A DNA stretch of 17,812 nt from Candidatus Eiseniibacteriota bacterium (GTDB lineage: Bacteria; Eisenbacteria; RBG-16-71-46): positions 1-17,812 of the forward strand of contig JBBTLZ010000109.1 of assembly GCA_038068435.1 (NCBI GenBank), given 5' to 3'. How positions within the stretch are numbered: the first letter of the stretch is position 1; each line of letters starts with the position of its first letter. The notes below the pieces were generated by a model. The model was not told the DNA's origin, did not search any database, and worked only from the letters and a program-made list of their open reading frames with translations. The position numbers and the translations under genes were made by a program. Positions 2,145-17,508 of the stretch are shown piece after piece.

Positions 2145-3578
2145 TCAGCGTGTGGGACTGAGTGGGATGATGGCCACAACTGTCGTCCCTCTGGGGCTGG
2201 TGAGGATTTCGAGTTCGCCGGCGAGCTGGCAGACGCGCTCGCGCATCCCGGTGATGCCCACGCCCAATCCCGTGATTTCATCGGGGGCATCGCCGCTCCG
2301 CTCCGGCAATCCGCGCCCCTGGTCGGCCACCTTGAGCGTCACGTGGCCCGCCGCCGAACCGAGGTGCACGAGAGCGGTCGGGCTGCACGAGTGGCGGTTG
2401 ATGTTGCTCAGGCATTCCTGCACGATGCGGAACAGCGCGGTCGCAACATCGGGGTCCAGCCGTGGGAAATCGGGCGCGACCTCGAAGGTCGCCGCGATCC
2501 GGCTGCGCTCTGCGAAGCCCTGCACGTAGCGGCGCAGCGCCGGCACCAAGCCGCCTTTATCGGGCAATGGCGGGTGGAGCAGGTAGGTAATGGTGCGGAT
2601 GGAATTCGCGCACTGGTCGAGCTGCTCATGACACCGCGTGAGCGCCTGGCGAGCGCGCGGGTCGCGGGACACGTCCACGCCGTCGAGCACAGCGAGGTTG
2701 AGCGAGAGAGCCGTGATGTACTGGGCGGTCTGGTCGTGCAGCTCACGCGCGATGCGGCGTCGCTCCTCGTCTCGGAGCTTGAAGAGCCGCGCGGAGAGGC
2801 TACTCAGGGTCGCCTCGGCCTCCCGGAGGCGTGTAATGTCGCGCAACACGGCGAGGTGTACGCCGCGCTGGATGTCGGCGACCACCGTGCACTCAACCAT
2901 GATTCGGTGGCCGTTCTTGCACGCCAACTCCATCTCGCCGTACCATTGACCGTCGGAGCATAACTGGGCGCACATCTCCGTGGACAGCTCAAGGCGGCCC
3001 GGGCGCACGATGTCGGTCGGGTCGAGGCGAAGCAGTTCCCCGCGCGTGTAGCCGAGCATCGTGGTAGTCGCCTGATTGGCATCGACACAATGCCCCTGCT
3101 CGTCAATGATCACGAAGGCGTCGGGCGCGCCGTCGAAGAGTGCCTTGAACCACCGCTGGCTATCCCGCGCCGCGCGCTCGGCCTGCAGACGTCCGGCGAT
3201 GTCCCGAGCGCACACGAGGAGGACTTGCCGCCCCTCGAGCGGAAGTAGGCAGGAGGACATCTGGACGTCGATGGTCGTTCCGTCCCTGCGCTGGTAGCCC
3301 CTCACGATCAAGGCCAGGCGGGATCCGTCGGTTGCGGAGGTCTGCCAGGGCAGGGAGCCGAACGGCGCCGGCACACCGTCGGAGGAACCGACATCGAAGA
3401 GTGTCATGCGCAGGAGCTCCTGATGCGTGTACCCGAGTAACTGGGCTGCCTGGTCGTTCGCCGCCAGGAAAGCCATGGTTCTGGGATCAAAGACCCAAGC
3501 GACGAAGGGGAGTCGATCGACAAGCGATTGGATCGAAAGCGAAACCTGCTGCTGTGTCTGATTAGGACCTGAGACCAT
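2145..3578 (-). CDS. Sensor histidine kinase, multi-PAS, HisKA_3/NarX-class with HATPase_c
   Basis: At least two PAS-like repeats are visible (..FLAANDQAAQLLGYTHQELL.., ..HCVDANQATTTMLGYTRGELL..). H-box: EERRRIARELHDQTAQ (HisKA_3). ATP-binding region: N-box/G-boxes ADQGRGLP...GLGVGITGMRERV. ATG 3578 is preferred over TTG 3605, because RBS GGGAGGTGG lies upstream of the ATG. It forms an operon with the downstream response regulator. Confidence 0.8.
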   Translation of the reverse strand: MVSGPNQTQQQVSLSIQSLVDRLPFVAWVFDPRTMAFLAANDQAAQLLGYTHQELLRMTLFDVGSSDGVPAPFGSLPWQTSATDGSRLALIVRGYQRRDGTTIDVQMSSCLLPLEGRQVLLVCARDIAGRLQAERAARDSQRWFKALFDGAPDAFVIIDEQGHCVDANQATTTMLGYTRGELLRLDPTDIVRPGRLELSTEMCAQLCSDGQWYGEMELACKNGHRIMVECTVVADIQRGVHLAVLRDITRLREAEATLSSLSARLFKLRDEERRRIARELHDQTAQYITALSLNLAVLDGVDVSRDPRARQALTRCHEQLDQCANSIRTITYLLHPPLPDKGGLVPALRRYVQGFAERSRIAATFEVAPDFPRLDPDVATALFRIVQECLSNINRHSCSPTALVHLGSAAGHVTLKVADQGRGLPERSGDAPDEITGLGVGITGMRERVCQLAGELEILTSPRGTTVVAIIPLSPTR

Positions 3579-4148
3579 GCGGCCCCCCCCACCTCCCTGT
3601 AGCAACTCAACTCACGATAGCTCGATAGTCTTTGATGCATCCCCGACTGTAATACAAGAGAATTAAGTCGAACGCTGGGTAACGAGCCGGGACTCGAGAA
3701 TGGTTCAGGTAGTCTCGGTAGGTGAACTGCCCTAAATCACTGGCCTGATTATGAATTGCCCGCGGTAACCGGTTGCAAGTCGTGAGACCTGCCTGCCTTT
3801 GGAGACCGTGGTCGTGGTGCTGGGCAACCCCCGGCTCCGCGAGGAGTGCATGGCCGAAGTAGAGGCTTGGATCAAAGCCAACCTCCATTCAGTGCCGCCG
3901 GGGGATTTGAGGGCTACGAGCAGGAAAACCAGCGGCCTCAGTGGTCCCAGTGGATCTTGAGCGAGGCCAGTCACCCCCTTGATTGGCGGCCAGCCTTCGT
4001 CCCCGCACCGCTGGCTACCGCGCCCGGAAGCCCACAGGTCTTGGTTCAGCCGCGCTCCCCTCCGTCCGATAAGAAGAGGACAGGTCACCCCGGTGGCCGG
4101 GCCGCCGCATGGCCCGTCCCCGGCCCCCCACGGATGAGGGACCTCACC

Positions 4149-6356: not shown

Positions 6357-6418
6357 CCTGCGGCCCGTGAGCCGCCCGACTCCTGCCGGGATCGTTCGTC
6401 CCCGGCACCGAGGTGTTC

Positions 6419-7786
6419 ATGGCTGATCTCTCCATCGACTTCGCCGGCATCAAGAGCCCGAACCCATTCTGGCTCGCCAGCGCCCCGCCCACCAACAGTG
6501 GCGACCAGGTCATGCGCGCCTTTGACCTCGGCTGGGGTGGGGCGGTGTGGAAGACGCTCGGCGATCCGATCGTCGACACGTCGAGCCGCTTCGGCTCGCT
6601 CGACGTCAACGGCACGCGCATGGTGGGCTTCAACAACATCGAGCTCATCACCGACCGGCCGCTCGAGGTGAACCTACGCGAGATCCGCGAGGTCAAGCGC
6701 AGGTACGCGGACCGCGCGGTCCTCGTCTCGCTGATGGTGGAGTCCAAGGAGGACTGGCGCGACATCATCAAGGCCTCGATCGACACCGGCTGCGACGGAC
6801 TCGAGCTCAACTTCGGCTGCCCGCACGGCATGTGCGAGCGCGGCATGGGCTCGGCGGTGGGGTCGGAGCCCGAGGTGCTGAAGACGGTCGCGGGATGGGC
6901 GGTCGAGTACTCGACCGTGCCGGTGCTCATCAAGCTCACGCCCAACATCGGCGACATCCTCGAGGCCGGCGTGCCGGCGGTCGAAGCCGGCGTGCACGGG
7001 CTCTCGCTCATCAACACCATCAAGAGCCTGATCGGCGTGGACCTCGACCGGTTCGTGCCCTACCCGGTGGTGGGCAATCGCTCGACCAACGGCGGCTACT
7101 GCGGACCGGCGGTCAAGCCGATCGCGCTCCACATGGTGGCGGCACTCGCCCGCGACCCGCGCATCACCGTGCCGATCTCGGGCGTCGGCGGCATCGCCAC
7201 CTGGCGCGACGCGGCCGAGTTCATCGCCCTCGGCGCCACCAGCGTGCAGGTGTGCACCGCCGCCATGCACTACGGCTTCCGCATCGTCGAGGACATGATC
7301 GACGGCCTCGGCGCCTACCTCGACGACAAGGGGATGAAGTCGGTGAAGGAGCTCCACCGCAAGGCGCTGCCGGCGTTCCGGGAGTGGGGTGACCTCGATC
7401 TCAACTACAAGGTCATCGCCCACGTCGATGCCGAGAAGTGCATCGGCTGCAACCTGTGCTACGTGGCCTGTCGCGACACCGCGGTCCACTGCATCCACAA
7501 CGCCGGCGAGCCGCTCCAGCCCGGCCACCGTGCGACGACGCGCGAGGCGGCCATCACCGCCGCAAGGGCGAAGGACGTGCACATCGTCTGGGTGGACGAG
7601 AGCGAGTGCATCGGCTGCAACCTGTGCGCGGCGGTCTGCCCGGTGCCGGGCTGCATCACCATGAAGGACGAGACCAACGGCGCGCCCTTCGAGTCGTGGA
7701 ACGATCGCATCGCGAAGGGCACCGCGAAGGTGCCGGGCGGGCTCGCCGACTACCGTGCTAGGCACGGCGCGCGGGCGAGGAGCTGA
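6419..7786 (+). CDS. preA: PreA-type NAD-dependent dihydropyrimidine dehydrogenase subunit (dihydroorotate-dehydrogenase-like TIM barrel + 2x[4Fe-4S] ferredoxin domain)
   Basis: DHOD/DPD fold motifs are present (GLELNFGCPHGM, ISGVGGI). The C-terminus carries two CxxCxxC...CP ferredoxin motifs (CIGCNLCYVAC...; CIGCNLCAAVCPVPGC). RBS AGGTG precedes the ATG. No preT/gltD-like partner is adjacent. Confidence 0.8.
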   Translation: MADLSIDFAGIKSPNPFWLASAPPTNSGDQVMRAFDLGWGGAVWKTLGDPIVDTSSRFGSLDVNGTRMVGFNNIELITDRPLEVNLREIREVKRRYADRAVLVSLMVESKEDWRDIIKASIDTGCDGLELNFGCPHGMCERGMGSAVGSEPEVLKTVAGWAVEYSTVPVLIKLTPNIGDILEAGVPAVEAGVHGLSLINTIKSLIGVDLDRFVPYPVVGNRSTNGGYCGPAVKPIALHMVAALARDPRITVPISGVGGIATWRDAAEFIALGATSVQVCTAAMHYGFRIVEDMIDGLGAYLDDKGMKSVKELHRKALPAFREWGDLDLNYKVIAHVDAEKCIGCNLCYVACRDTAVHCIHNAGEPLQPGHRATTREAAITAARAKDVHIVWVDESECIGCNLCAAVCPVPGCITMKDETNGAPFESWNDRIAKGTAKVPGGLADYRARHGARARS

Positions 7787-8049: not shown

Positions 8050-9540
<1,491 letters not shown>

Positions 9541-9569: not shown

Positions 9570-9686
9570 CGACCGTGGTCGGGGATGGCCCCCTGGCTGG
9601 CTGACTCCCGGTTCAGAACTCGATGCGCGCCAGTGGCTTGGCCAGACGTTCGGGACTGCAGCTTCCGAAGTCCATCCGATCGCCTG

Positions 9687-9725
9687 TTGACCCACATTGA
9701 CAAACTATTGATAGACAAGTAGGTT
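9687..9725 (+). promoter_or_regulatory. Candidate sigma70-like promoter for the regulator-suf operon in a locally AT-rich patch
   Basis: TTGACA (9697-9702) is followed by a 17-nt spacer and then TAGGTT (9720-9725), about 30 nt upstream of the regulator start. An overlapping TTGACC lies at 9687. Repeated TTGACA/TTGATA half-sites lie within the patch. Confidence 0.35.
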
Positions 9726-9767
9726 CCGGGCCGAATCTAACTCTCGCGTAAGGGTTTGGAACCCATC

Positions 9768-10322
9768 ATGTCAACGACCCCTGAAGCCACCCAACTCCTC
9801 CGTATCGGCGACCTTGCCCGCCTGACGGGCAAGACCGTCCGGGCGATTCATCTCTACGATGAACTGGGGCTGCTCCACCCGGCGACGCGCTCGAGCGGCG
9901 GGTTCCGACTCTACGAGCGCTCGGCGGTCGAGCGCATGCGCTGGATCGATCTCCTCCACGGCATGGGCTTCTCGCTCCAGGACATGAGCGAAGTGCTGCG
10001 GTCCTGGTGGAGCGCCGACCTGGGGCCAGACGCGATGGAAGGCCTGCGGCGGCTCTTCGCGCGCAAGCTCGCGGAGACCCGCGTCGCGCTGCAGCGACAC
10101 CAGCAGCTCGAGCGCGAGCTCACCCAGGGGTTGGCCTACCTCGAGACCTGCCGTGAGTGCGCCACGCCGGGGGTGCCGGTGAAGGCCTGCGTCCGCTGCG
10201 GGCAGGACCACGGGATGTCGCACGAGCCCGCCCTGGTGGCGGGCATCACCTCGACGCCGGAGCGTTCACGCCGCGGCGCGCGCGGCGGTCTGCTGAGCGT
10301 GGCTGAACCGGAGCCTCGATGA
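9768..10322 (+). CDS. MerR-family transcriptional regulator with C-terminal CxxC-x10-CxxC cysteine cluster
   Basis: N-terminal MerR HTH: LRIGDLARLTGKTVRAIHLYDELGLLHPATRSSGGFRLY. A coiled-coil dimerisation region follows. The C-terminus reads CRECATPGVPVKACVRCGQDHG (nt 10149-10199). The stop TGA overlaps the sufA ATG (ATGA). An alternative start is TTG 9756. Confidence 0.75.
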   Translation: MSTTPEATQLLRIGDLARLTGKTVRAIHLYDELGLLHPATRSSGGFRLYERSAVERMRWIDLLHGMGFSLQDMSEVLRSWWSADLGPDAMEGLRRLFARKLAETRVALQRHQQLERELTQGLAYLETCRECATPGVPVKACVRCGQDHGMSHEPALVAGITSTPERSRRGARGGLLSVAEPEPR

Positions 10323-10720
10323 CGGCGAAGATCCCGGCGGAGTCGATCACCATGGAATCGACGAACGATGGAGAGACGAAAGGAGCCGGCGTCACGATGA
10401 TCACCCTCACCCCGGTGGCCGCTGAGAAGGTCAAGGATCTCCTCGCCAATCGCGGCAACCCGCAGACCGGGCTGCGCATCGGCGTGCGCGGCGGCGGCTG
10501 TTCGGGCAACTCGTACTTCATGGAGTTCTGCGACGCCGAGTCGCCGGGCGATCAGGTGATGGAGTCGAACGGTGTGCGGCTGGTCGTGGATTCCCGCAGC
10601 GCCACGCTCCTCGGCGGGACCGAGTTGGACTACGTCGAGGGCCTGATGGGCACCGGCTTCAAGTTCAACAACCCGAACGTGCGGCACAACTGCGCGTGCG
10701 GGGAGAGCTTCTCGGTCTGA
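10319..10720 (+). CDS. sufA: A-type Fe-S cluster carrier (SufA/IscA/HesB family)
   Basis: The three conserved Cys are present (GGGCSG ... CACGESF at the C-terminus), with a core [18 protein letters not shown] 10319 overlaps the regulator stop. Internal alternative starts at 10352/10397 would give a more typical 108-122 aa protein. Confidence 0.8.
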
Positions 10721-10838: not shown

Positions 10839-11642
10839 ATGAGCCATGCGCCGGAACTGGTGATCAAGGATCTCCACGTGGCGATCGAGGGCAAGGAGAT
10901 CCTCAAGGGTCTCAGCCTCGAGGTCCGCAAGGGGGAGATGCATGCCCTGATGGGCCCCAACGGCTCGGGCAAGAGCACATTCGCCAACACCCTGATGGGA
11001 CACCCGAAGTACGAGGTCACCTCGGGCGACATCCTGTTCAAGGGCGAGAGCATCCTCGAGCTGGAGCCCGACCAGCGCTCGCGCGCCGGGTTGTTCATGG
11101 CCTTCCAGTACCCGGTCGCCATCCCCGGGGTGACGGTCGCCAACTTCCTGCGCACCGCGCTCAACACGCGGCTGGCGCCGCCGGACACCAACGGCTCGGG
11201 CGCCATGCCACAGCAGCGGGGGATCGCCCCGAAGGAGTTCCGCGCCCTGCTGCGCGAGAAGATGGCCCTGCTCAAGATGGACGAATCGTTCGCGGGGCGC
11301 TACCTCAACGACGGATTCTCGGGGGGCGAGAAGAAGCGCACCGAGATCCTGCAGATGGCGGTGCTCAAGCCCGAGATGGCGGTCATGGACGAGACCGACT
11401 CAGGGCTCGACATCGACGCGCTGCGCATCGTCGCCGACGGCGTGAACGCGCTCGCCGGCCCCGGGATGGGTGTGCTCGTCATCACGCACTACCAGCGCAT
11501 CCTGAACTACATCAAGCCGGACAAGGTCCACGTGATGGTCGACGGGAAGATCGAGGTGTCCGGCGGTCCGGAACTCGCGCTCAAGCTCGAGAGCAGGGGC
11601 TACGACTGGGTGCGGGAAGGGAAGGAAGTGACCGCGCCATGA
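10839..11642 (+). CDS. sufC: Fe-S cluster assembly ATPase SufC
   Basis: Walker [13 protein letters not shown] signature FSGGEKKR, Walker [11 protein letters not shown] and H-loop ITHYQR are present. The N-terminus ELVIKDLHV matches SufC. Its stop overlaps the sufB ATG. Confidence 0.9.
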
Positions 11643-14125
11643 GCACGACGCCCAATCTCGACCTGCGCGAGAGCTACACCGAGAAGTACGGCTTCCACGA
11701 CACGGATCAATTCGTCTTCAAGAGCCGCCGGGGGCTCGACCGCGAGATCGTTGCCCAGATCTCGGACATGAAGGGCGAGCCGCGGTGGATGCGGGACTAT
11801 CGCCTCAAGGCGCTCGAGATCTTCGAGAAGAAGCCCATGCCCACCTGGGGCCCCGATCTCTCGACCATCGACTTCCAGAACATCTACTACTACGTGAAGC
11901 CGACGTCCGAAGAGGCCAAGTCGTGGGAGGACGTGCCCGCCGACATGAAGCGCACCTTCGACAAGCTCGGCATCCCGGAGGCGGAGCAGAAGTTCCTCTC
12001 GGGCGTGGGCGCCCAGTACGACTCCGAGGTGGTCTACCACAAGATCAAGGAACACCTCGAGCAGCAGGGCGTTGTCTTTCTTTCCTGTGACCATGCGCTC
12101 AAGGAGCACGAGGCGCTCTTCAAGGAGTACTTCGGCACGGTGATCCCGTCGACGGACAACAAATTCGCCGCGCTCAATTCCGCGGTGTGGTCGGGTGGCT
12201 CGTTCATCTACGTGCCGAAGGGCGTCAAGGTCGACGTGCCGCTGCAGGCCTACTTCCGGATCAACACCAAGGACATGGGCCAGTTCGAGCGCACGCTCAT
12301 CATCGTCGACGAGGGCGCGTTCGTGCACTACGTCGAGGGGTGTCTGCCGGCGGGGGAGCAGGTCAGTGTCGGCGACCACTGGGTGAACATCGAGAGCGTC
12401 AGCCGCGGCGACGTGGTCATGGACTCCGACGGCGAGGAGTCCGTCGTCGCCAGTACCCGCGTGCTGCCGTTCAAGGGCGACCTCGTCCGCCTGGTCCCGA
12501 TCTCGCGGGCCAACGCCTTTCAGGTCACGCCGGAGCATCCGGTGCTGGTGGTGAGGCGGCGCGACGTGGCGACGAGCCGCCCCCAGCGCGGGAACTGGCT
12601 GCTGGAGGTGAACGGCGAGAAGCTCCGCACGGCGAAGCCGGAGTTCATCCCGGCCGGTAAGCTCGAACGCGGTGACTTCATGGTGTTCCCAATCAGCAAG
12701 ATCACGCGGCCGAATCCGGAGTTCACGCCGGGGATCATGCGACTCCTCGGCTACTACCTGGCCGAGGGCTCCACCTACGTGCACAACAAGCTGAAGGTGC
12801 CGGTCGTCGCTTTCAGTTTCAGCGAGCGGGAGCGCGAGACCATCGACGAAGTGAAGGCGCTGATCCTGGCTTTCACGGGCGAGAAGGCGATGGAGATCCA
12901 CAGCCCCAGTCGCCACGGCATCGAAGTGCGCGTCTACTCGCGCGAGCTGATGGACCTGTGTCTCCTCCACTGCAACAAGCACGCAGCGGAGAAGCGGCTG
13001 AGCAAGGTCGTGATGGAGCTGCCGCCGGGACTCCAGGCGGAACTGCTCGAGACCTACCTCAAGGGCGATGGCAGCGTCTATCGCAAGCGCCAGCACACCA
13101 TGGTGCGCGCGGCGACGGCCTCACCGGCGCTCGCCTGGCAGCTGCAGGAGCTGATCGCCAGGCAGGGTCACTACGCCACGGTCAGCGTCCGGAAGGGCGG
13201 ACCCGACACGATCCTGGGCCGCAGGATCACCCGACACGACCAGTACATCCTCTATTTCTCTCCCGACAAGGAGAAGAGCGAAGTGCGGCGCGGCGACGGC
13301 TGCTTCCTCGTGCCGATCAAGCGCATCGAGCGGACCCCGTACGACGGGCCGGTGTTCAACTTCGAGCTGGCGCGCGCGCCGAACGCCTACGTGACGCGCG
13401 GATTCGCCGTGCACAACTGTACCGCCCCGACCTACTCCAGCGATTCGCTGCACTCCGCGGTGGTCGAGATCATCGTCAAGCCGGGTGCTCGCTGCCGCTA
13501 CACGACCATCCAGAACTGGTCCAACAACGTGTACAACCTGGTGACCAAGCGCGCGGTCGCCTATCGCGACGCGACCATGGAGTGGGTGGACGGGAATCTC
13601 GGCTCCAAGATCACCGTAAAATACCCGAGCGTGTACATGATGGAGCCCGGTGCGCACGGCGAGATTCTCTCGATCGCCTTCGCGGGCCGCGGCCAGCACA
13701 CGGACGCGGGCGGAAAGGTGGTCCACTGCGCGCCAAACACGACGAGCAAGATCATCTCCAAGTCCATCAGCAAGGACGGCGGCCGCGCGGGCTACCGCGG
13801 GCTGGTCAAGGTGCAGAAGGGCGCGGTGGACTCGCGCAGCAACGTCAACTGCGACGCGCTGATCCTCGACGAGAAGTCGCGCTCGGACACCTACCCCACC
13901 ATGGAGATCGAGGAGGACCGGGTCTCGATCGGCCACGAGGCGACGGTGTCCAAGATCGGCGACGAGCAGCTCTTCTATCTGCAGTCACGCGGTATCAACA
14001 AGGAGGAGGCGGCGGCCATGATCGTTTCCGGCTTCATCGAGCCGATCGTGAAGGAGCTGCCGATGGAATACGCGGTCGAGATGAACCGGCTCATCCAGCT
14101 CCAGATGGAGGGCTCGGTCGGATGA
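11639..14125 (+). CDS. sufB: SufB precursor containing a 359-aa intein (mature SufB ~469 aa)
   Basis: RBS GGGAAGGGAAGGAAG precedes the ATG. ATGA overlaps link it to sufC and to sufD. The extein sequence (..[19 protein letters not shown] | [20 protein letters not shown]..) is continuous SufB sequence interrupted by the intein. C-terminal SufB motifs are present. Confidence 0.9.
12341..13417 (+). mobile_element. Intein with LAGLIDADG homing-endonuclease domain inserted in sufB
   Basis: The element is in frame and 1077 nt long (359 aa). Cys1 (TGT 12341) starts block A ([14 protein letters not shown]...). Block B has TxxH (VTPEHPV). Two LAGLIDADG motifs are present: [10 protein letters not shown] (~12744-12773) and [11 protein letters not shown] (~13044-13076). 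The terminal ...FAVHN is followed by the Cys+1 of the C-extein (TGT 13418). Confidence 0.85.
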
Positions 14126-15462
14126 CGCCCTCGACGACGACGACGGCGATTGATCTCGCCGCCTGGGAGACCGGCGCGCTGCAGCGCGCGGCGAAGCAGG
14201 ATGAGCCGGCCTGGGTCATCGACCAGCGCCGGGTCGCGGCGGGCCACGCGCGCGCACTCGGCTTGCCGAGCCGGGATCACGAGTTGTGGCGCCGGATCGA
14301 CTTCCGCACCCTCGAGCAGGCGTTGCCGTCGCTCGATCCGTTCCGGGAGACGGCGGCCACCCGCGATTTGGGCGACCTGCCGGCCGCGCTGCTCGAGCGG
14401 CTGGGGGGCGAGTCGGGCCGCGTGGGACTCGTCGTGCAGCGCGACAGCGGCGTCGTCATCGCGCAGACGGCGTCCGAGCTGGCCCGGCAGGGCGTCATCG
14501 TGTGCCCGCTCGGACGCGCGCTCGTCGAGCACGGCAACCTGCTGCGCGAACGGCTGGGCGCCCTGATCGAGCCGGACTACGACGGCTATGCCGCACTCGG
14601 TGCGGCACTGCGCTCGGGCGGCGCATTCGTCTACGTGCCCGACGGGGTGGAGGCGGCGGTCCCAATCCGGCTTTTCGACTGGCTGGATGGGGTCGGCGCG
14701 CTGGCCGCGCCGCGCACCGTCATCGTGCTCGGGAAGAACGCGCGGGCGACCATCGTGCATGAGCAGCTCTCGGAGTCCGCCGAAGGGATCGCATTCCACC
14801 TGGGCGGCACCGAGGTGTTCCTCGGCCAGGACGCGAAGCTGGTCTACGGCACGCTCCAGGAGTGGGGTCGCCACGTCTACCACTACTCGAACCAGCGAGT
14901 GCAGGTCGGGCGCGGGGCCGAGCTGCAGTGGATCCAGACCATCCTCGGCGGCCGGATGGTGAAGACCAACTCGTATTTCAACATGATCGGGCCGGGTGCG
15001 CAGGTCTTCGTGCACGGGTTCATGTTCGGCGACGGCCGGCAGCAGTTCCATCTCCACACGCTGCAGCGGCACCTGGCCGACCACTGCACCAGCGACCTGC
15101 TCATCAAGGGCTGCCTCAAGGATCGGGCACGCAGCATCTACCAGGGCCTGATCCAGGTCGCCGAGGGCGCCCAGCGCACCGACGCCTATCAGGCCAACCG
15201 GAACCTGTTGCTCTCGGACACCGCGCGCGCCGACAGCATCCCCGGCCTGGAGATCCTGGCCAACGATGTGCGCTGTACGCACGGCGCCACCATCGGCAGC
15301 GTGGACCCGGAGCAGATGTACTACCTCATGTCCCGCGGACTCCCGCGCAACACGGCGCAGCGGCTCATCGTCGAGGGGTTCTTCGCGCCGGTGATCGACC
15401 GCATCCCGCTCGAGGGCATCCGGGAGCATCTGCGCCAGGTGATCCAGCGGAAGATCGGATAG
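14122..15462 (+). CDS. sufD: Fe-S cluster assembly protein SufD
   Basis: A SufB/SufD-family beta-helix core is visible (..AFVYVPDGVEAAVPIRL..; ..LLLSDTARADSIPGLEILANDVRCTHGATIG..). ATG 14122 overlaps the sufB stop (ATGA). The protein is 446 aa. Confidence 0.85.
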   Translation: MTPSTTTTAIDLAAWETGALQRAAKQDEPAWVIDQRRVAAGHARALGLPSRDHELWRRIDFRTLEQALPSLDPFRETAATRDLGDLPAALLERLGGESGRVGLVVQRDSGVVIAQTASELARQGVIVCPLGRALVEHGNLLRERLGALIEPDYDGYAALGAALRSGGAFVYVPDGVEAAVPIRLFDWLDGVGALAAPRTVIVLGKNARATIVHEQLSESAEGIAFHLGGTEVFLGQDAKLVYGTLQEWGRHVYHYSNQRVQVGRGAELQWIQTILGGRMVKTNSYFNMIGPGAQVFVHGFMFGDGRQQFHLHTLQRHLADHCTSDLLIKGCLKDRARSIYQGLIQVAEGAQRTDAYQANRNLLLSDTARADSIPGLEILANDVRCTHGATIGSVDPEQMYYLMSRGLPRNTAQRLIVEGFFAPVIDRIPLEGIREHLRQVIQRKIG

Positions 15463-15467
15463 GGCAG

Positions 15468-16772
15468 ATGGCGCTCCGTCACGGCAGCGCGGGCGCGGTC
15501 CGGGCCACCCCCGGAGCGGCGGCGGACGCCCCGTCCCCGGCGCGCCCGGCCTTCGATCCCCACGAGGTCCGGCAGCAGTTCCCGATCTTCCGCACCGCCC
15601 GCGCCAAGCCGCTCTGCTACCTCGACAGCGCTGCGACCAGCCAGAAGCCCGACGCAGTGCTGGCAGCGATGGACCGCTACTACGCGACCTGCAACGCCAA
15701 CATCCATCGCGGCATCTACGCGATCGCCGAGGAGGCGACGGCGGCCTACGAGGATGCGCGCCGGCGCGTGGCGCGGTTCGTCAACGCGCGCTCGCCGCGC
15801 GAGCTGATCTTCACCCGCAACAGCACCGAGGCCATCAACCTGGTGGCCTACGCATGGGGCCGCTCGCAGCTCAAGTCCGGCGACGCGATCGTGCTGACCG
15901 AGATGGAGCACCACTCGAACCTGGTGCCGTGGCAGATCCTCGCCCACGAGCGCGGCCTCGCGCTGCGCTTCATCCCGATCACCGGGGATGGCGAGCTGGA
16001 TCTCGCGGTATTGCCCGGGCTGCTCGCCGACGGGCGGGCCAAGCTGGTGGGCGTGGTGCACATCTCGAACGTGCTCGGCACCGTGAACCCGGTGGCCGAG
16101 CTCGCGCGGCAGGCGCACGCCGCCGGCGCGCTCATGCTGCTCGACGCCTCGCAGAGCGTGCCGCACTGCCCGGTGGACGTGCAGGCGCTGGGCTGCGACT
16201 TCATGGCATTCACCAGCCACAAGATGCTCGGGCCCACCGGCATCGGCGCGTTGTGGGCGCGCCGCGAGTTGCTCGAGGCGATGCCGCCCTTCCTCGGCGG
16301 CGGCGAGATGATTCGCGAGGTGAGTCTGACCGAATCGAAGTGGAACGAGCTGCCGTGGAAGTTCGAGGCCGGCACGATGGCAATCGCCGAGGCGGTGGGC
16401 TTCGGTGCGGCGGTCGACTATCTCGAGGCGCTCGGCATGGACCGGGTGTTCGCCCACGACCGCGCGCTGGTCGCTTCGACCATGGAGCGCCTGCGCGAGG
16501 TGCCGGAGCTCACCATCCTGGGCCCGCCGGCCGAGCGCCGCGGCGGCGTCATCGCCTTCACCCTCGACGAGCTCCATCCGCACGACGTGGCCACGGTGCT
16601 CGACGACGAGGGCGTGGCGGTGCGCGCGGGCCACCACTGCGCGATGCCGCTGCACGAGAAGCTCGGCGTGCCGGCGAGCGCGCGGGCTTCGTTCTACTGC
16701 TACACGGTGCCGGAGGAGATCGACGCGCTGGTGCGCGGGCTCCACCGCACGCGCAAGGTGTTCGCGCGATGA
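15468..16772 (+). CDS. sufS: Cysteine desulfurase SufS (class II aminotransferase class V)
   Basis: The PLP-lysine context SHKMLGPTGIGAL is present, and the catalytic Cys lies in RAGHHCAMPL. The N-terminus FPIF..KPLCYLDSAATSQKP matches SufS. The ATG lies 5 nt after the sufD stop. The ~25-aa Ala/Pro-rich N-terminal extension may instead reflect a later non-ATG start. Confidence 0.85.
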   Translation: MALRHGSAGAVRATPGAAADAPSPARPAFDPHEVRQQFPIFRTARAKPLCYLDSAATSQKPDAVLAAMDRYYATCNANIHRGIYAIAEEATAAYEDARRRVARFVNARSPRELIFTRNSTEAINLVAYAWGRSQLKSGDAIVLTEMEHHSNLVPWQILAHERGLALRFIPITGDGELDLAVLPGLLADGRAKLVGVVHISNVLGTVNPVAELARQAHAAGALMLLDASQSVPHCPVDVQALGCDFMAFTSHKMLGPTGIGALWARRELLEAMPPFLGGGEMIREVSLTESKWNELPWKFEAGTMAIAEAVGFGAAVDYLEALGMDRVFAHDRALVASTMERLREVPELTILGPPAERRGGVIAFTLDELHPHDVATVLDDEGVAVRAGHHCAMPLHEKLGVPASARASFYCYTVPEEIDALVRGLHRTRKVFAR

Positions 16773-17167
16773 GCGGGTTGGAGGATCTGTTCCGCGAGAA
16801 CATCCTCGACCACTACCAGCACCCGCGGAATCACGGGACGCTCGAGCACCCGGACATCACCTACGAGGACGCGAATCCGCTGTGCGGCGACCGGATCCGG
16901 ATCGACGTCAACGTGAAGGACGGACGCATCGAGCAGGTTCGGTTCTCGGGGGTCGGCTGCTCGATCAGCCGGGCGGCCGCCTCGATGCTGTGCGAGGCGG
17001 TCGAGGGCAAGACGCTCGAAGAGGTCAAGACGCTGTCGCGTGACGACGTCCTCGAGATGCTGGGCATCGCGCTGGGTCCGGTGCGGCTCAAGTGCGGGAT
17101 GCTGGCGCTCAAGACGCTGAAGGCCGGGGTCTACGGCATCCATCAGTGGCCCGGCGAGGACGAGTGA
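16769..17167 (+). CDS. sufU: SufU (NifU/IscU-like zinc-dependent sulfur-transfer protein)
   Basis: The N-terminus has the SufU hallmark NHGTL; three conserved Cys are present (NPLCGD, GVGCSIS, LKCGML). An ATGA overlap links it to sufS. The protein is 132 aa. Confidence 0.85.
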   Translation: MSGLEDLFRENILDHYQHPRNHGTLEHPDITYEDANPLCGDRIRIDVNVKDGRIEQVRFSGVGCSISRAAASMLCEAVEGKTLEEVKTLSRDDVLEMLGIALGPVRLKCGMLALKTLKAGVYGIHQWPGEDE

Positions 17168-17181
17168 CGGGAGGGGACGTG

Positions 17182-17508
17182 ATGAGCGATATCCAGGCCG
17201 GGAGGTTCGTGACGGTGGCGAAGGTGGGCGAGATCCCACCGGGCGGGGTCAAGGTCGTGCGCCTCGACGACCAGGAGATCGCCGTGTTCAACCTCGCGGG
17301 CGCGTACTACGCGATCGACGACGTGTGCACGCACGACGGTGGCCCGCTCGCCGAGGGCCTGATCGACGGCGACGCGATCGAATGCCCCCGTCACGGCGCG
17401 CGCTTCGACATCCGCACGGGGAGGGTGCTGGCGATGCCGGCGACCGTGCCGGTGCCGACCTACGCCGTTCGCGTGGAGGGCGAGGAGATCCAGGTGGGAT
17501 GGTCATGA
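17182..17508 (+). CDS. Small Rieske [2Fe-2S] ferredoxin
   Basis: Rieske motifs CTHDGGPL (CxH) and CPRHGARF (CxxH) are separated by 16 residues. RBS GGGAGGGGA lies 5 nt before the ATG. The stop overlaps the sufT ATG (ATGA). Confidence 0.8.
   Translation: MSDIQAGRFVTVAKVGEIPPGGVKVVRLDDQEIAVFNLAGAYYAIDDVCTHDGGPLAEGLIDGDAIECPRHGARFDIRTGRVLAMPATVPVPTYAVRVEGEEIQVGWS

Follow-up and report, generated by a model that had tools for sequence, protein, structure and literature searches.

The 17,812-nucleotide (nt) contig JBBTLZ010000109.1 from the Candidatus Eiseniibacteriota assembly GCA_038068435.1, referred to here in its entirety as the window, contains a suf operon for assembling iron-sulfur clusters (Fe-S), and the first gene of this operon encodes a MerR-family regulator with four conserved cysteines (Cys4). 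The genes sufA, sufC, sufB, sufD, sufS, and sufU and a gene for a Rieske-type ferredoxin follow the regulator gene on the same strand (Table 1), confirming its position at the head of the operon as given in the initial annotation of this DNA. Homologues of the regulator occur directly ahead of Fe-S assembly operons in many other genomes, and a conserved 22-bp dyad immediately precedes the regulator gene. Considered together, these features point to an autoregulated, Fe-S-sensing transcription factor of the Fe-S assembly operon that it heads, an explanation to which we assign a probability of roughly 0.55.

TABLE 1 Features of the regulator gene, its promoter region, and the suf operon in the window. 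Residues are numbered from ATG 9768. AF2, AlphaFold2; pLDDT, predicted local distance difference test score; aa, amino acids; ORF, open reading frame.
Feature	Position	Strand	Basis or remark
Putative -35 element, TTGACA	9697-9702	+	TTGAC conserved, with constant spacing to the dyad, across 70 nonredundant SUF-type loci
Putative -10 element, TAGGTT (consensus TAnnTT), 17 bp after the -35	9720-9725	+	T, A, and TT at fixed positions
Candidate operator, 22-bp imperfect dyad, AATCTAAC-TCTCGC-GTAAGGGT	9734-9755	none	Family consensus ACyCTwAC-N6-GTwAGrGT
Gene of the MerR-family Cys4 regulator	9756-10322	+	Start at TTG 9756 or ATG 9768 (184 aa from ATG)
MerR_1 region, residues 12-79	9798-10007	+	Pfam; AF2 pLDDT 95-98
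Long dimerization (coiled-coil) helix, residues 86-127	10023-10148	+	AF2 pLDDT 89-96; Foldseek
Cys4 motif, C128-x2-C131-x9-C141-x2-C144	10149-10199	+	At the metal-binding-loop position of metal-sensing MerR proteins
His148, four residues past the last cysteine	10209-10211	+	Nearly invariant in one family alignment
P-x-L-V-A-G segment and short helix, residues 154-161	10227-10250	+	Conserved, after the cysteine loop
sufA Shine-Dalgarno sequence, GAAAGGAG	10378-10385	+	Conserved in most Eisenbacteria loci
sufA, A-type carrier, 107 aa	10397-10720	+	Pfam Fe-S_biosyn, NCBIfam TIGR00049
sufC, ABC ATPase	10839-11642	+	
sufB, split by an intein	11639-14125	+	Pfam SUFBD_core in two stretches, plus LAGLIDADG_3
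LAGLIDADG intein within sufB, 359 aa	12341-13417	+	Junctions YVEG/CLPAG...FAVHN/CTAP
sufD	14122-15462	+	
sufS, cysteine desulfurase	15468-16772	+	ORF and tblastn synteny; homologues carry Aminotran_5
sufU (NifU_N)	16769-17167	+	Pfam
Rieske-type ferredoxin gene, last gene of the cluster within the window	17182-17508	+	Pfam Rieske

The initial annotation proposed synteny with suf genes in related genomes as a check on the role of the regulator, and this synteny is widespread. A scan of species-representative genomes, in which the query was an alignment of 12 sequences (an alignment of 43 sequences being too diverse), yielded 519 confirmed loci, of which the best 80 were kept. About 60 of these 80 derive from Eisenbacteria, and all of them contain the regulator followed by sufA, sufC, sufB, sufD, sufS, sufU, and the Rieske gene, with the genes upstream of the regulator varying from locus to locus. 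Another 22 or so derive from Myxococcota and Oligoflexia (Polyangiaceae, Sandaracinaceae, Nannocystaceae, Byssovorax, and one member of the Oligoflexia), and in these, at 45 to 54% identity, the regulator is followed by iscS, iscU, and iscA, the genes of the iron-sulfur cluster (ISC) system. On the longer contigs, the regulator comes first and is followed by iscS-iscU-iscA-hscB-hscA-fdx. A regulator variant whose first cysteine pair is CxxxC heads this same ISC arrangement, and in the case of a further variant the genes downstream are those of a desulfurase and an A-type carrier.

A metagenome scan seeded with the most distant members of the family produced 80 further loci, 74 with an ISC or SUF operon directly downstream and the other 6 ending at most about 130 nt from the regulator gene. 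Altogether, 163 of the 172 loci that were fetched (169 of them distinct) adjoin an Fe-S operon, which is SUF in 80 cases, ISC in 75 cases, and a truncated SUF-like operon in 8 cases. With 7 of the 172 loci cut off no more than 130 nt from the regulator gene, 165 are informative, and in 163 of these the regulator is situated immediately upstream of the Fe-S assembly operon and on the same strand. In a neighbor-joining tree, the regulators linked to SUF fall into a single clade of 85 members, apart from one singleton, suggesting that there were about two switches between ISC and SUF, through which the motif and the operator seem to have been retained. Three of the loci come from metagenome-assembled genomes titled Saccharimonadaceae, Acidiferrales, and Limnocylindria (L017, L023, and L026), and they are 66 to 70% identical to the Eisenbacteria regulator, with the same suf synteny; their placement is probably the result of binning errors.

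The assignment of the regulator to the MerR family, as in the initial annotation, is based on its Pfam matches, its predicted fold, and a search of the sequences in the Protein Data Bank (PDB). The product matches the Pfam models MerR_1 (E = 4.6e-13; 49.5 bits, cut-off of 21.6) and MerR (E = 1.6e-11; 44.3 bits, cut-off of 28.2), and its match to MerR-DNA-bind falls slightly under the cut-off of that model; no Pfam or NCBIfam model from outside the MerR family matched the window regulator. The AF2 model of the monomer, with a mean pLDDT of 83.7, has a confidently predicted winged helix-turn-helix and a long helix at residues 86-127, the other helices occupying residues 13-20, 24-32, 52-65, and 70-82. 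Foldseek matches this model to CueR, CadR, SoxR, NmlR, and BmrR, each with a probability of 1.00. Residues listed as invariant for the MerR_1 region in the family alignments include G14, R25, Y30, R41, and R47, and in the segment past the cysteines, where AF2 places a helix at residues 155-161, P154 and L156 are invariant and G159 is nearly so.

The four cysteines directly follow the long dimerization helix, within the sequence CRECATPGVPVKACVRC. A four-cysteine motif at these positions was already part of the initial annotation, but its two pairs are separated by nine residues (CxxC-x9-CxxC) and not by the ten that were originally reported. A family search of 1.84 billion cluster representatives, at a threshold of E < 1e-10, recovered 572 clusters, most of which align over residues 7-162. 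Among the best 150 representatives, 83 contain CxxC-x(5-20)-CxxC, and most of the remaining full-length ones deviate either by CxxxC in place of the first CxxC or by a long insertion that separates the two pairs. When 43 representatives with 31 to 62% identity are aligned, G14, R25, Y30, L70, and the four cysteines are the only invariant positions, and the cysteines are likewise invariant in a second, more distant alignment. The motif C-x2/3-C-x7-9(12)-C-x2-C is present in 170 of the 171 homologues translated from the fetched loci, such that the cysteines pass the conservation check that had been set for them. In 161 of these 170 homologues, a histidine occurs no more than 8 residues after the last cysteine, its conserved place being three to five residues past the fourth cysteine; the corresponding residue of the window regulator, His148, is a possible fifth, extra, or alternative ligand.

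Judging from their sequences, these homologues constitute a large, uncharacterized subfamily of MerR proteins with four conserved cysteines. In a profile search of PDB sequences, the best matches were Bacillus megaterium MerR, PbrR, CadR, and CueR, and C131 and C141 appear to be aligned with the Cys-x8-Cys metal loop of PbrR. The Cys4 motif occupies the place at which the family has its metal-binding loop, in enlarged form and with two extra flanking cysteines, and no MerR protein with an equivalent Cys4 loop was present among the matches of the PDB sequence and fold searches. In the family alignments, no cysteine is conserved near residues 80-90, the start of the dimerization helix, where MerR, ZntR, and PbrR use one.

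The ligand of these cysteines is taken, with modest confidence, to be an Fe-S cluster. The same residues could instead hold Zn(II) in a structural role, or be free of metal, and sense oxidation directly rather than the supply of clusters, in which case oxidants would convert the two CxxC pairs to disulfides, as in RsrA and Hsp33, DNA binding would be altered, and the Fe-S assembly genes would be induced in oxidative stress. The CxxC-x8/9-CxxC arrangement does resemble zinc-knuckle and rubredoxin knuckles, the SUF system is the stress-adapted system in many bacteria, and a zinc site would tolerate the variation observed within the family, in which the first pair is either CxxC or CxxxC and a few members have long inserts. 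A redox switch of this type is nonetheless unlikely, given that the family also heads housekeeping ISC operons, for which a signal of supply and demand is a better fit. Moreover, the characterized regulators that occupy this position in their operons (IscR, SufR, and RisR) all sense through Fe-S clusters, and the only known four-cysteine loop in a MerR protein, that of SoxR, binds [2Fe-2S].

Less probable still is that the regulator senses a single metal ion, its Cys4 loop binding either Fe(II), at a site like that of rubredoxin, or one of the toxic, thiophilic metals (Cd, Zn, Cu, or Co) by which Fe-S clusters are attacked, with Fe-S assembly being tuned to iron availability or to metal stress. 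The best matches to the regulator in both sequence and structure are indeed the MerR-family sensors of Hg, Pb, Cd, Cu, and Zn (CueR, ZntR, MerR, PbrR, and CadR), whose metal-binding loop appears to correspond to the inner pair, C131-x9-C141, and homologues of the regulator are named "copper efflux" or "zntA" regulators in their source databases. These names, however, most likely arose by automatic transfer, and the regulator is far under the cut-off of every metal-sensor equivalog in NCBIfam (CueR, 54.4 versus 147.4 bits; ZntR, 46.4 versus 168; CadR-PbrR, 44.1 versus 151; MerR, 40.2 versus 151). It differs further from these sensors in having two extra invariant cysteines and in lacking the cysteine at the start of the helix. 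No efflux or detoxification gene neighbors the regulator in the loci for which called genes are listed, and in the other loci an Fe-S operon is immediately downstream; in addition, the promoter does not have the 19- to 20-bp spacer of metal-responsive MerR promoters.

The dyad ahead of the regulator gene was exposed by lining up the upstream regions on the conserved N terminus. Scored against the family consensus with a threshold of at least 13 of 16 positions, it is present in the window as a single copy (AATCTAACTCTCGCGTAAGGGT) with 1 mismatch, where 0.03 copies are expected by chance. In the first 88 loci, which span 873 kb, the dyad occurs just upstream of the regulator in nearly every locus and nowhere else; the second set, of 458 kb, likewise has it only there, in 70 of 76 eligible loci. 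The family therefore falls, by function, among regulators that are encoded with isc or suf and have an operator at their own promoter, and it is very probable that the protein is a dedicated regulator acting at the dyad. The dyad is single or, in some loci, occurs twice in tandem. Second dyad-like sites are situated 30 to 130 bp above the main one in L049 (position 5849), L058 (1982), L069 (5815), L076 (1412/1443), and L086 (6915/6950), which suggests tandem binding in those lineages.

Across 138 distinct sites, positions 1, 4, 5, 7, 8, 15, 16, 18, 19, and 22 of the dyad are nearly invariant. An RNA hairpin was considered and rejected: positions 6 and 17 are noncomplementary in 111 of the 138 sites, and positions 2 and 21 in 64, with no compensatory changes. 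Because its sequence is nearly invariant and shows no compensatory variation, the dyad fits a protein-binding DNA site rather than an RNA stem. A search for inverted repeats in positions 9600-9800 detected nothing, the dyad being imperfect. The initial annotation had pointed to the TTGACA/TTGATA repeats of the upstream region as the site of binding. These repeats are real (TTGACC, TTGACA, and TTGATA at 9687-9713), but conservation among them is limited to TTGACA at 9697-9702, the putative -35 element, and the candidate operator is a different sequence, the dyad at 9734-9755.

The reading frame of the regulator, which ends with TGA at 10320-10322, may begin at either of the two candidate start codons. 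Among 77 SUF-type loci, 36 have an in-frame ATG directly against the end of the dyad, where TTG stands in the window and GTG in one other locus. With very short spacing, the right half-site, GTAAGGGT, might also serve the regulator gene for ribosome binding.

The best promoter call for the window, TTGACA-17-TAGGTT, is inferred from conservation. The consensus of the 70 SUF-type loci reads TTGaC.AA.t...t.gaAtCC..TA..TTcCgg.c.g, followed by the dyad and then by atG. The spacer between the -35 and -10 elements is 17 bp in 53 of 82 loci and 18 bp in 13 of them, and the dyad starts exactly 8 bp past the -10 element in 43 loci, as it does in the window, where it would extend from about +2 to +23. 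In most SUF-type loci, the start codon of the regulator follows the dyad by 0 to 12 nt. The classic geometry of MerR activators, with the dyad centered in a spacer of 19 to 20 bp, is not what is seen here. Since the dyad lies after the -10 element of a promoter with a 17- or 18-bp spacer, the geometry suggests a repressor and not an activator of the 19- to 20-bp-spacer type, and repression is accordingly rated as the probable mode of action. Although most metal- and redox-sensing MerR proteins operate by untwisting DNA, and a TTGCGG-like hexamer can be read 19 bp above TAAGGG in several loci, it is improbable that the regulator is such an activator, staying bound and acting, once its site is modified, on a second, weak promoter with its -10 element inside the right half-site (TAAGGG), the strong upstream TTGACA-17-TAGGTT being constitutive or not the relevant promoter, because the hexamer is unconserved (TTCCGG in the window), the dyad would be about 5 bp off center in that spacer and would cover the -10 element, the conserved signal is a promoter with a 17- or 18-bp spacer that ends 8 bp before the dyad, and the dyad of ISC-type loci overlaps or follows the best -10 candidate.

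The relationship between the regulator gene and sufA differs from that first described, in which the two were translationally coupled through an ATGA overlap of stop and start codons. The ATGA at 10319-10322 is present and in frame with sufA, and its use would add an extension of 26 residues. This extension is conserved in the nearest relative only; elsewhere it is of other length or sequence or is closed by stops, and several relatives are without any in-frame upstream start for sufA. An overlapping in-frame NTGA start occurs in about 13 of about 55 relatives, against a rough chance estimate of about 15 to 20%. Translational coupling is thus unsupported, because the extension is unconserved and the frequency of the overlap is near that expected by chance. 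In most Eisenbacteria loci, GAAAGGAG occurs 8 to 12 nt ahead of ATG-ATC-ACC (MITLTP), the ATG of which is at 10397 in the window, and this conserved ATG, rather than the ATGA overlap, is probably the start of sufA. With coupling rejected on these grounds, the regulator stop and the sufA start are separated by 74 nt, a gap in which there is no terminator-like site and across which the two genes are likely to be cotranscribed.

Under the Fe-S-sensing explanation, a MerR-type dimer would bind the dyad at 9734-9755, and its occupancy would cover the transcription start and the short leader, blocking expression of the regulator gene along with sufA-sufCBDSU-Rieske. The four cysteines, possibly with His148, would hold an Fe-S cluster supplied by SUF, or by ISC in other lineages. 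When clusters are plentiful, the holoprotein would repress, and when iron or sulfur is short, or when oxidants destroy clusters, the apoprotein or oxidized protein would release the DNA or change shape, leading to derepression. Such feedback would follow the logic of IscR for isc, of SufR for suf, and of the Myxococcus protein RisR, but on a different scaffold.

Several observations weigh against this explanation. Paired CxxC motifs likewise characterize Zn(Cys)4 sites and iron sites of the rubredoxin type, and the closest characterized relatives by sequence are the heavy-metal sensors MerR, PbrR, CadR, CueR, and ZntR. The Cys4 segment itself is poorly defined by AF2, with pLDDT values of 58 to 79 over residues 128-154. 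Most metal- and redox-sensing MerR proteins are activators that are bound to DNA in both states, and release from DNA would be unusual for the family. With respect to the promoter, a consensus scan of the window alone reports none, as the -10 element agrees with TATAAT in just 3 of 6 bases, and the dyad of ISC-type loci is at no fixed distance from a recognizable promoter. Finally, in 2 of the 165 informative loci, the regulators, which are the most divergent of the Cys4 relatives (33 to 35% identity), are not beside Fe-S genes. One of these two genes (L170, 7001-7561, and L171, 7001-7528) precedes a gene of the sigma-70 family and tonB, and the other precedes batA/VWA. A dyad-like site is located 20 nt upstream of the former, and the batA-linked gene is without a dyad. 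It is possible that the sensor module was redeployed in other regulons.

Among characterized proteins, SoxR resembles the regulator in its MerR scaffold, which combines a winged helix-turn-helix with a long dimerization helix, and in having four cysteines of one subunit in the loop after this helix; those of SoxR hold its sensory Fe-S cluster. The motifs are distinct, being CIGCGCLSxxC (CX2CXCX5C) in SoxR but CxxC-x8/9-CxxC in the regulator family (CX2CX9CX2C in the window), and the regulator attains 37.7 bits with the SoxR model TIGR01950 (cut-off of 116.9) over the helix-turn-helix only, which places it outside SoxR. SoxR activates soxS from a promoter with a 19- to 20-bp spacer. Activation through such spacers is general among MerR proteins (MerR, CueR, ZntR, and SoxR), whereas the operator described here comes after the -10 element of a promoter with a 17-bp spacer, and the target is not soxS but the Fe-S assembly operon of which the regulator is part.

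[quoted passage not shown] In its holo form, RisR represses both isc and suf through sites overlapping the promoter, and Rrf2 regulators have moved in the course of evolution between clusters of the ISC and SUF types, much as the MerR-Cys4 family appears to have done. No Rrf2 domain (PF02082) was detected in the regulator at E < 0.01, and it is therefore not an IscR or RisR. Clusters in IscR and RisR are bound by three cysteines and one other ligand, in contrast to the four cysteines in CxxC pairs of the regulator, and the RisR motif, GAC-N7-GTC, and the IscR motif both differ from the ACyCTwAC-N6-GTwAGrGT operator. RisR of Myxococcus was accordingly set aside as a relative, being an unrelated Rrf2 protein. 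SufR (COG2345), which represses suf in cyanobacteria and actinobacteria and combines a winged helix-turn-helix N domain with a C-terminal [4Fe-4S] domain, is similarly encoded first in or beside suf, and it is an autoregulated repressor that senses Fe-S status through a cysteine-ligated cluster. The regulator is unrelated to SufR, since it matches MerR models only and since the cysteine spacing and DNA site of SufR are different. MliR, the only iron-responsive MerR-like regulator that was found, was also rejected as a counterpart, having neither an effector domain nor cysteines. The view that suf control is noncanonical in this organism was a fair one, in that the regulator lies outside the SufR, IscR/Rrf2, SoxR, and CueR/ZntR families.

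Among relatives, SufB contains no, one, or two inteins; it is 469 aa long in L001 and 1166 aa long, with two LAGLIDADG matches, in L003. The Rieske gene is kept at the same position in Eisenbacteria relatives, and the gene after it in L001 is of the DUF59/FeS_assembly_P (SufT-like) type. Upstream of the regulator, the window encodes, at 6413-7786, a dihydroorotate/dihydropyrimidine dehydrogenase that is PreA-like and carries a 4Fe-4S dicluster domain; at 8050-9540, a permease of the NCS1 cytosine/uracil type; and, from the minus strand, a PAS histidine kinase (2145-3605) and a NarL-type response regulator (1498-2136). None of these upstream genes is a conserved neighbor of the regulator.

No description of a MerR-type regulator of isc or suf was found in the open-access literature, although an earlier mention in a comparative-genomics study is possible. 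A 2026 review presents IscR and SufR as the only sensors of Fe-S status, and SoxR is reviewed as the MerR protein that binds an Fe-S cluster. Both the logic and the scaffold are known, the latter with SoxR as a precedent, and it is their combination, together with the promoter geometry, that is apparently new to the literature. We tentatively suggest that the family could represent a third, independently evolved class of Fe-S-sensing feedback regulators, after Rrf2 (IscR/RisR) and SufR, one that is MerR based, controls ISC or SUF depending on the lineage, and represses from the transcription start rather than activating by DNA untwisting.

The regulation of Fe-S assembly is understood in only a few lineages (through IscR, SufR, RisR, RirA, and Fur/OxyR), and the regulator described here probably plays the role that IscR and SufR have in other bacteria. 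It provides a candidate regulator for Eisenbacteria, which are without a cultured model, and for the Polyangia branch of the Myxococcota. Thousands of database entries are labeled "copper efflux regulator" or "zntA regulator," a label that is very probably wrong. With a small protein, a defined operator, and invariant cysteine ligands, the family is amenable to experiment. If the proposed mechanism is true, the family would join SoxR as a second type of MerR protein with an Fe-S cluster, its regulatory logic being the opposite, and would furnish an example of a sensor-type MerR protein that acts from a repressor position.

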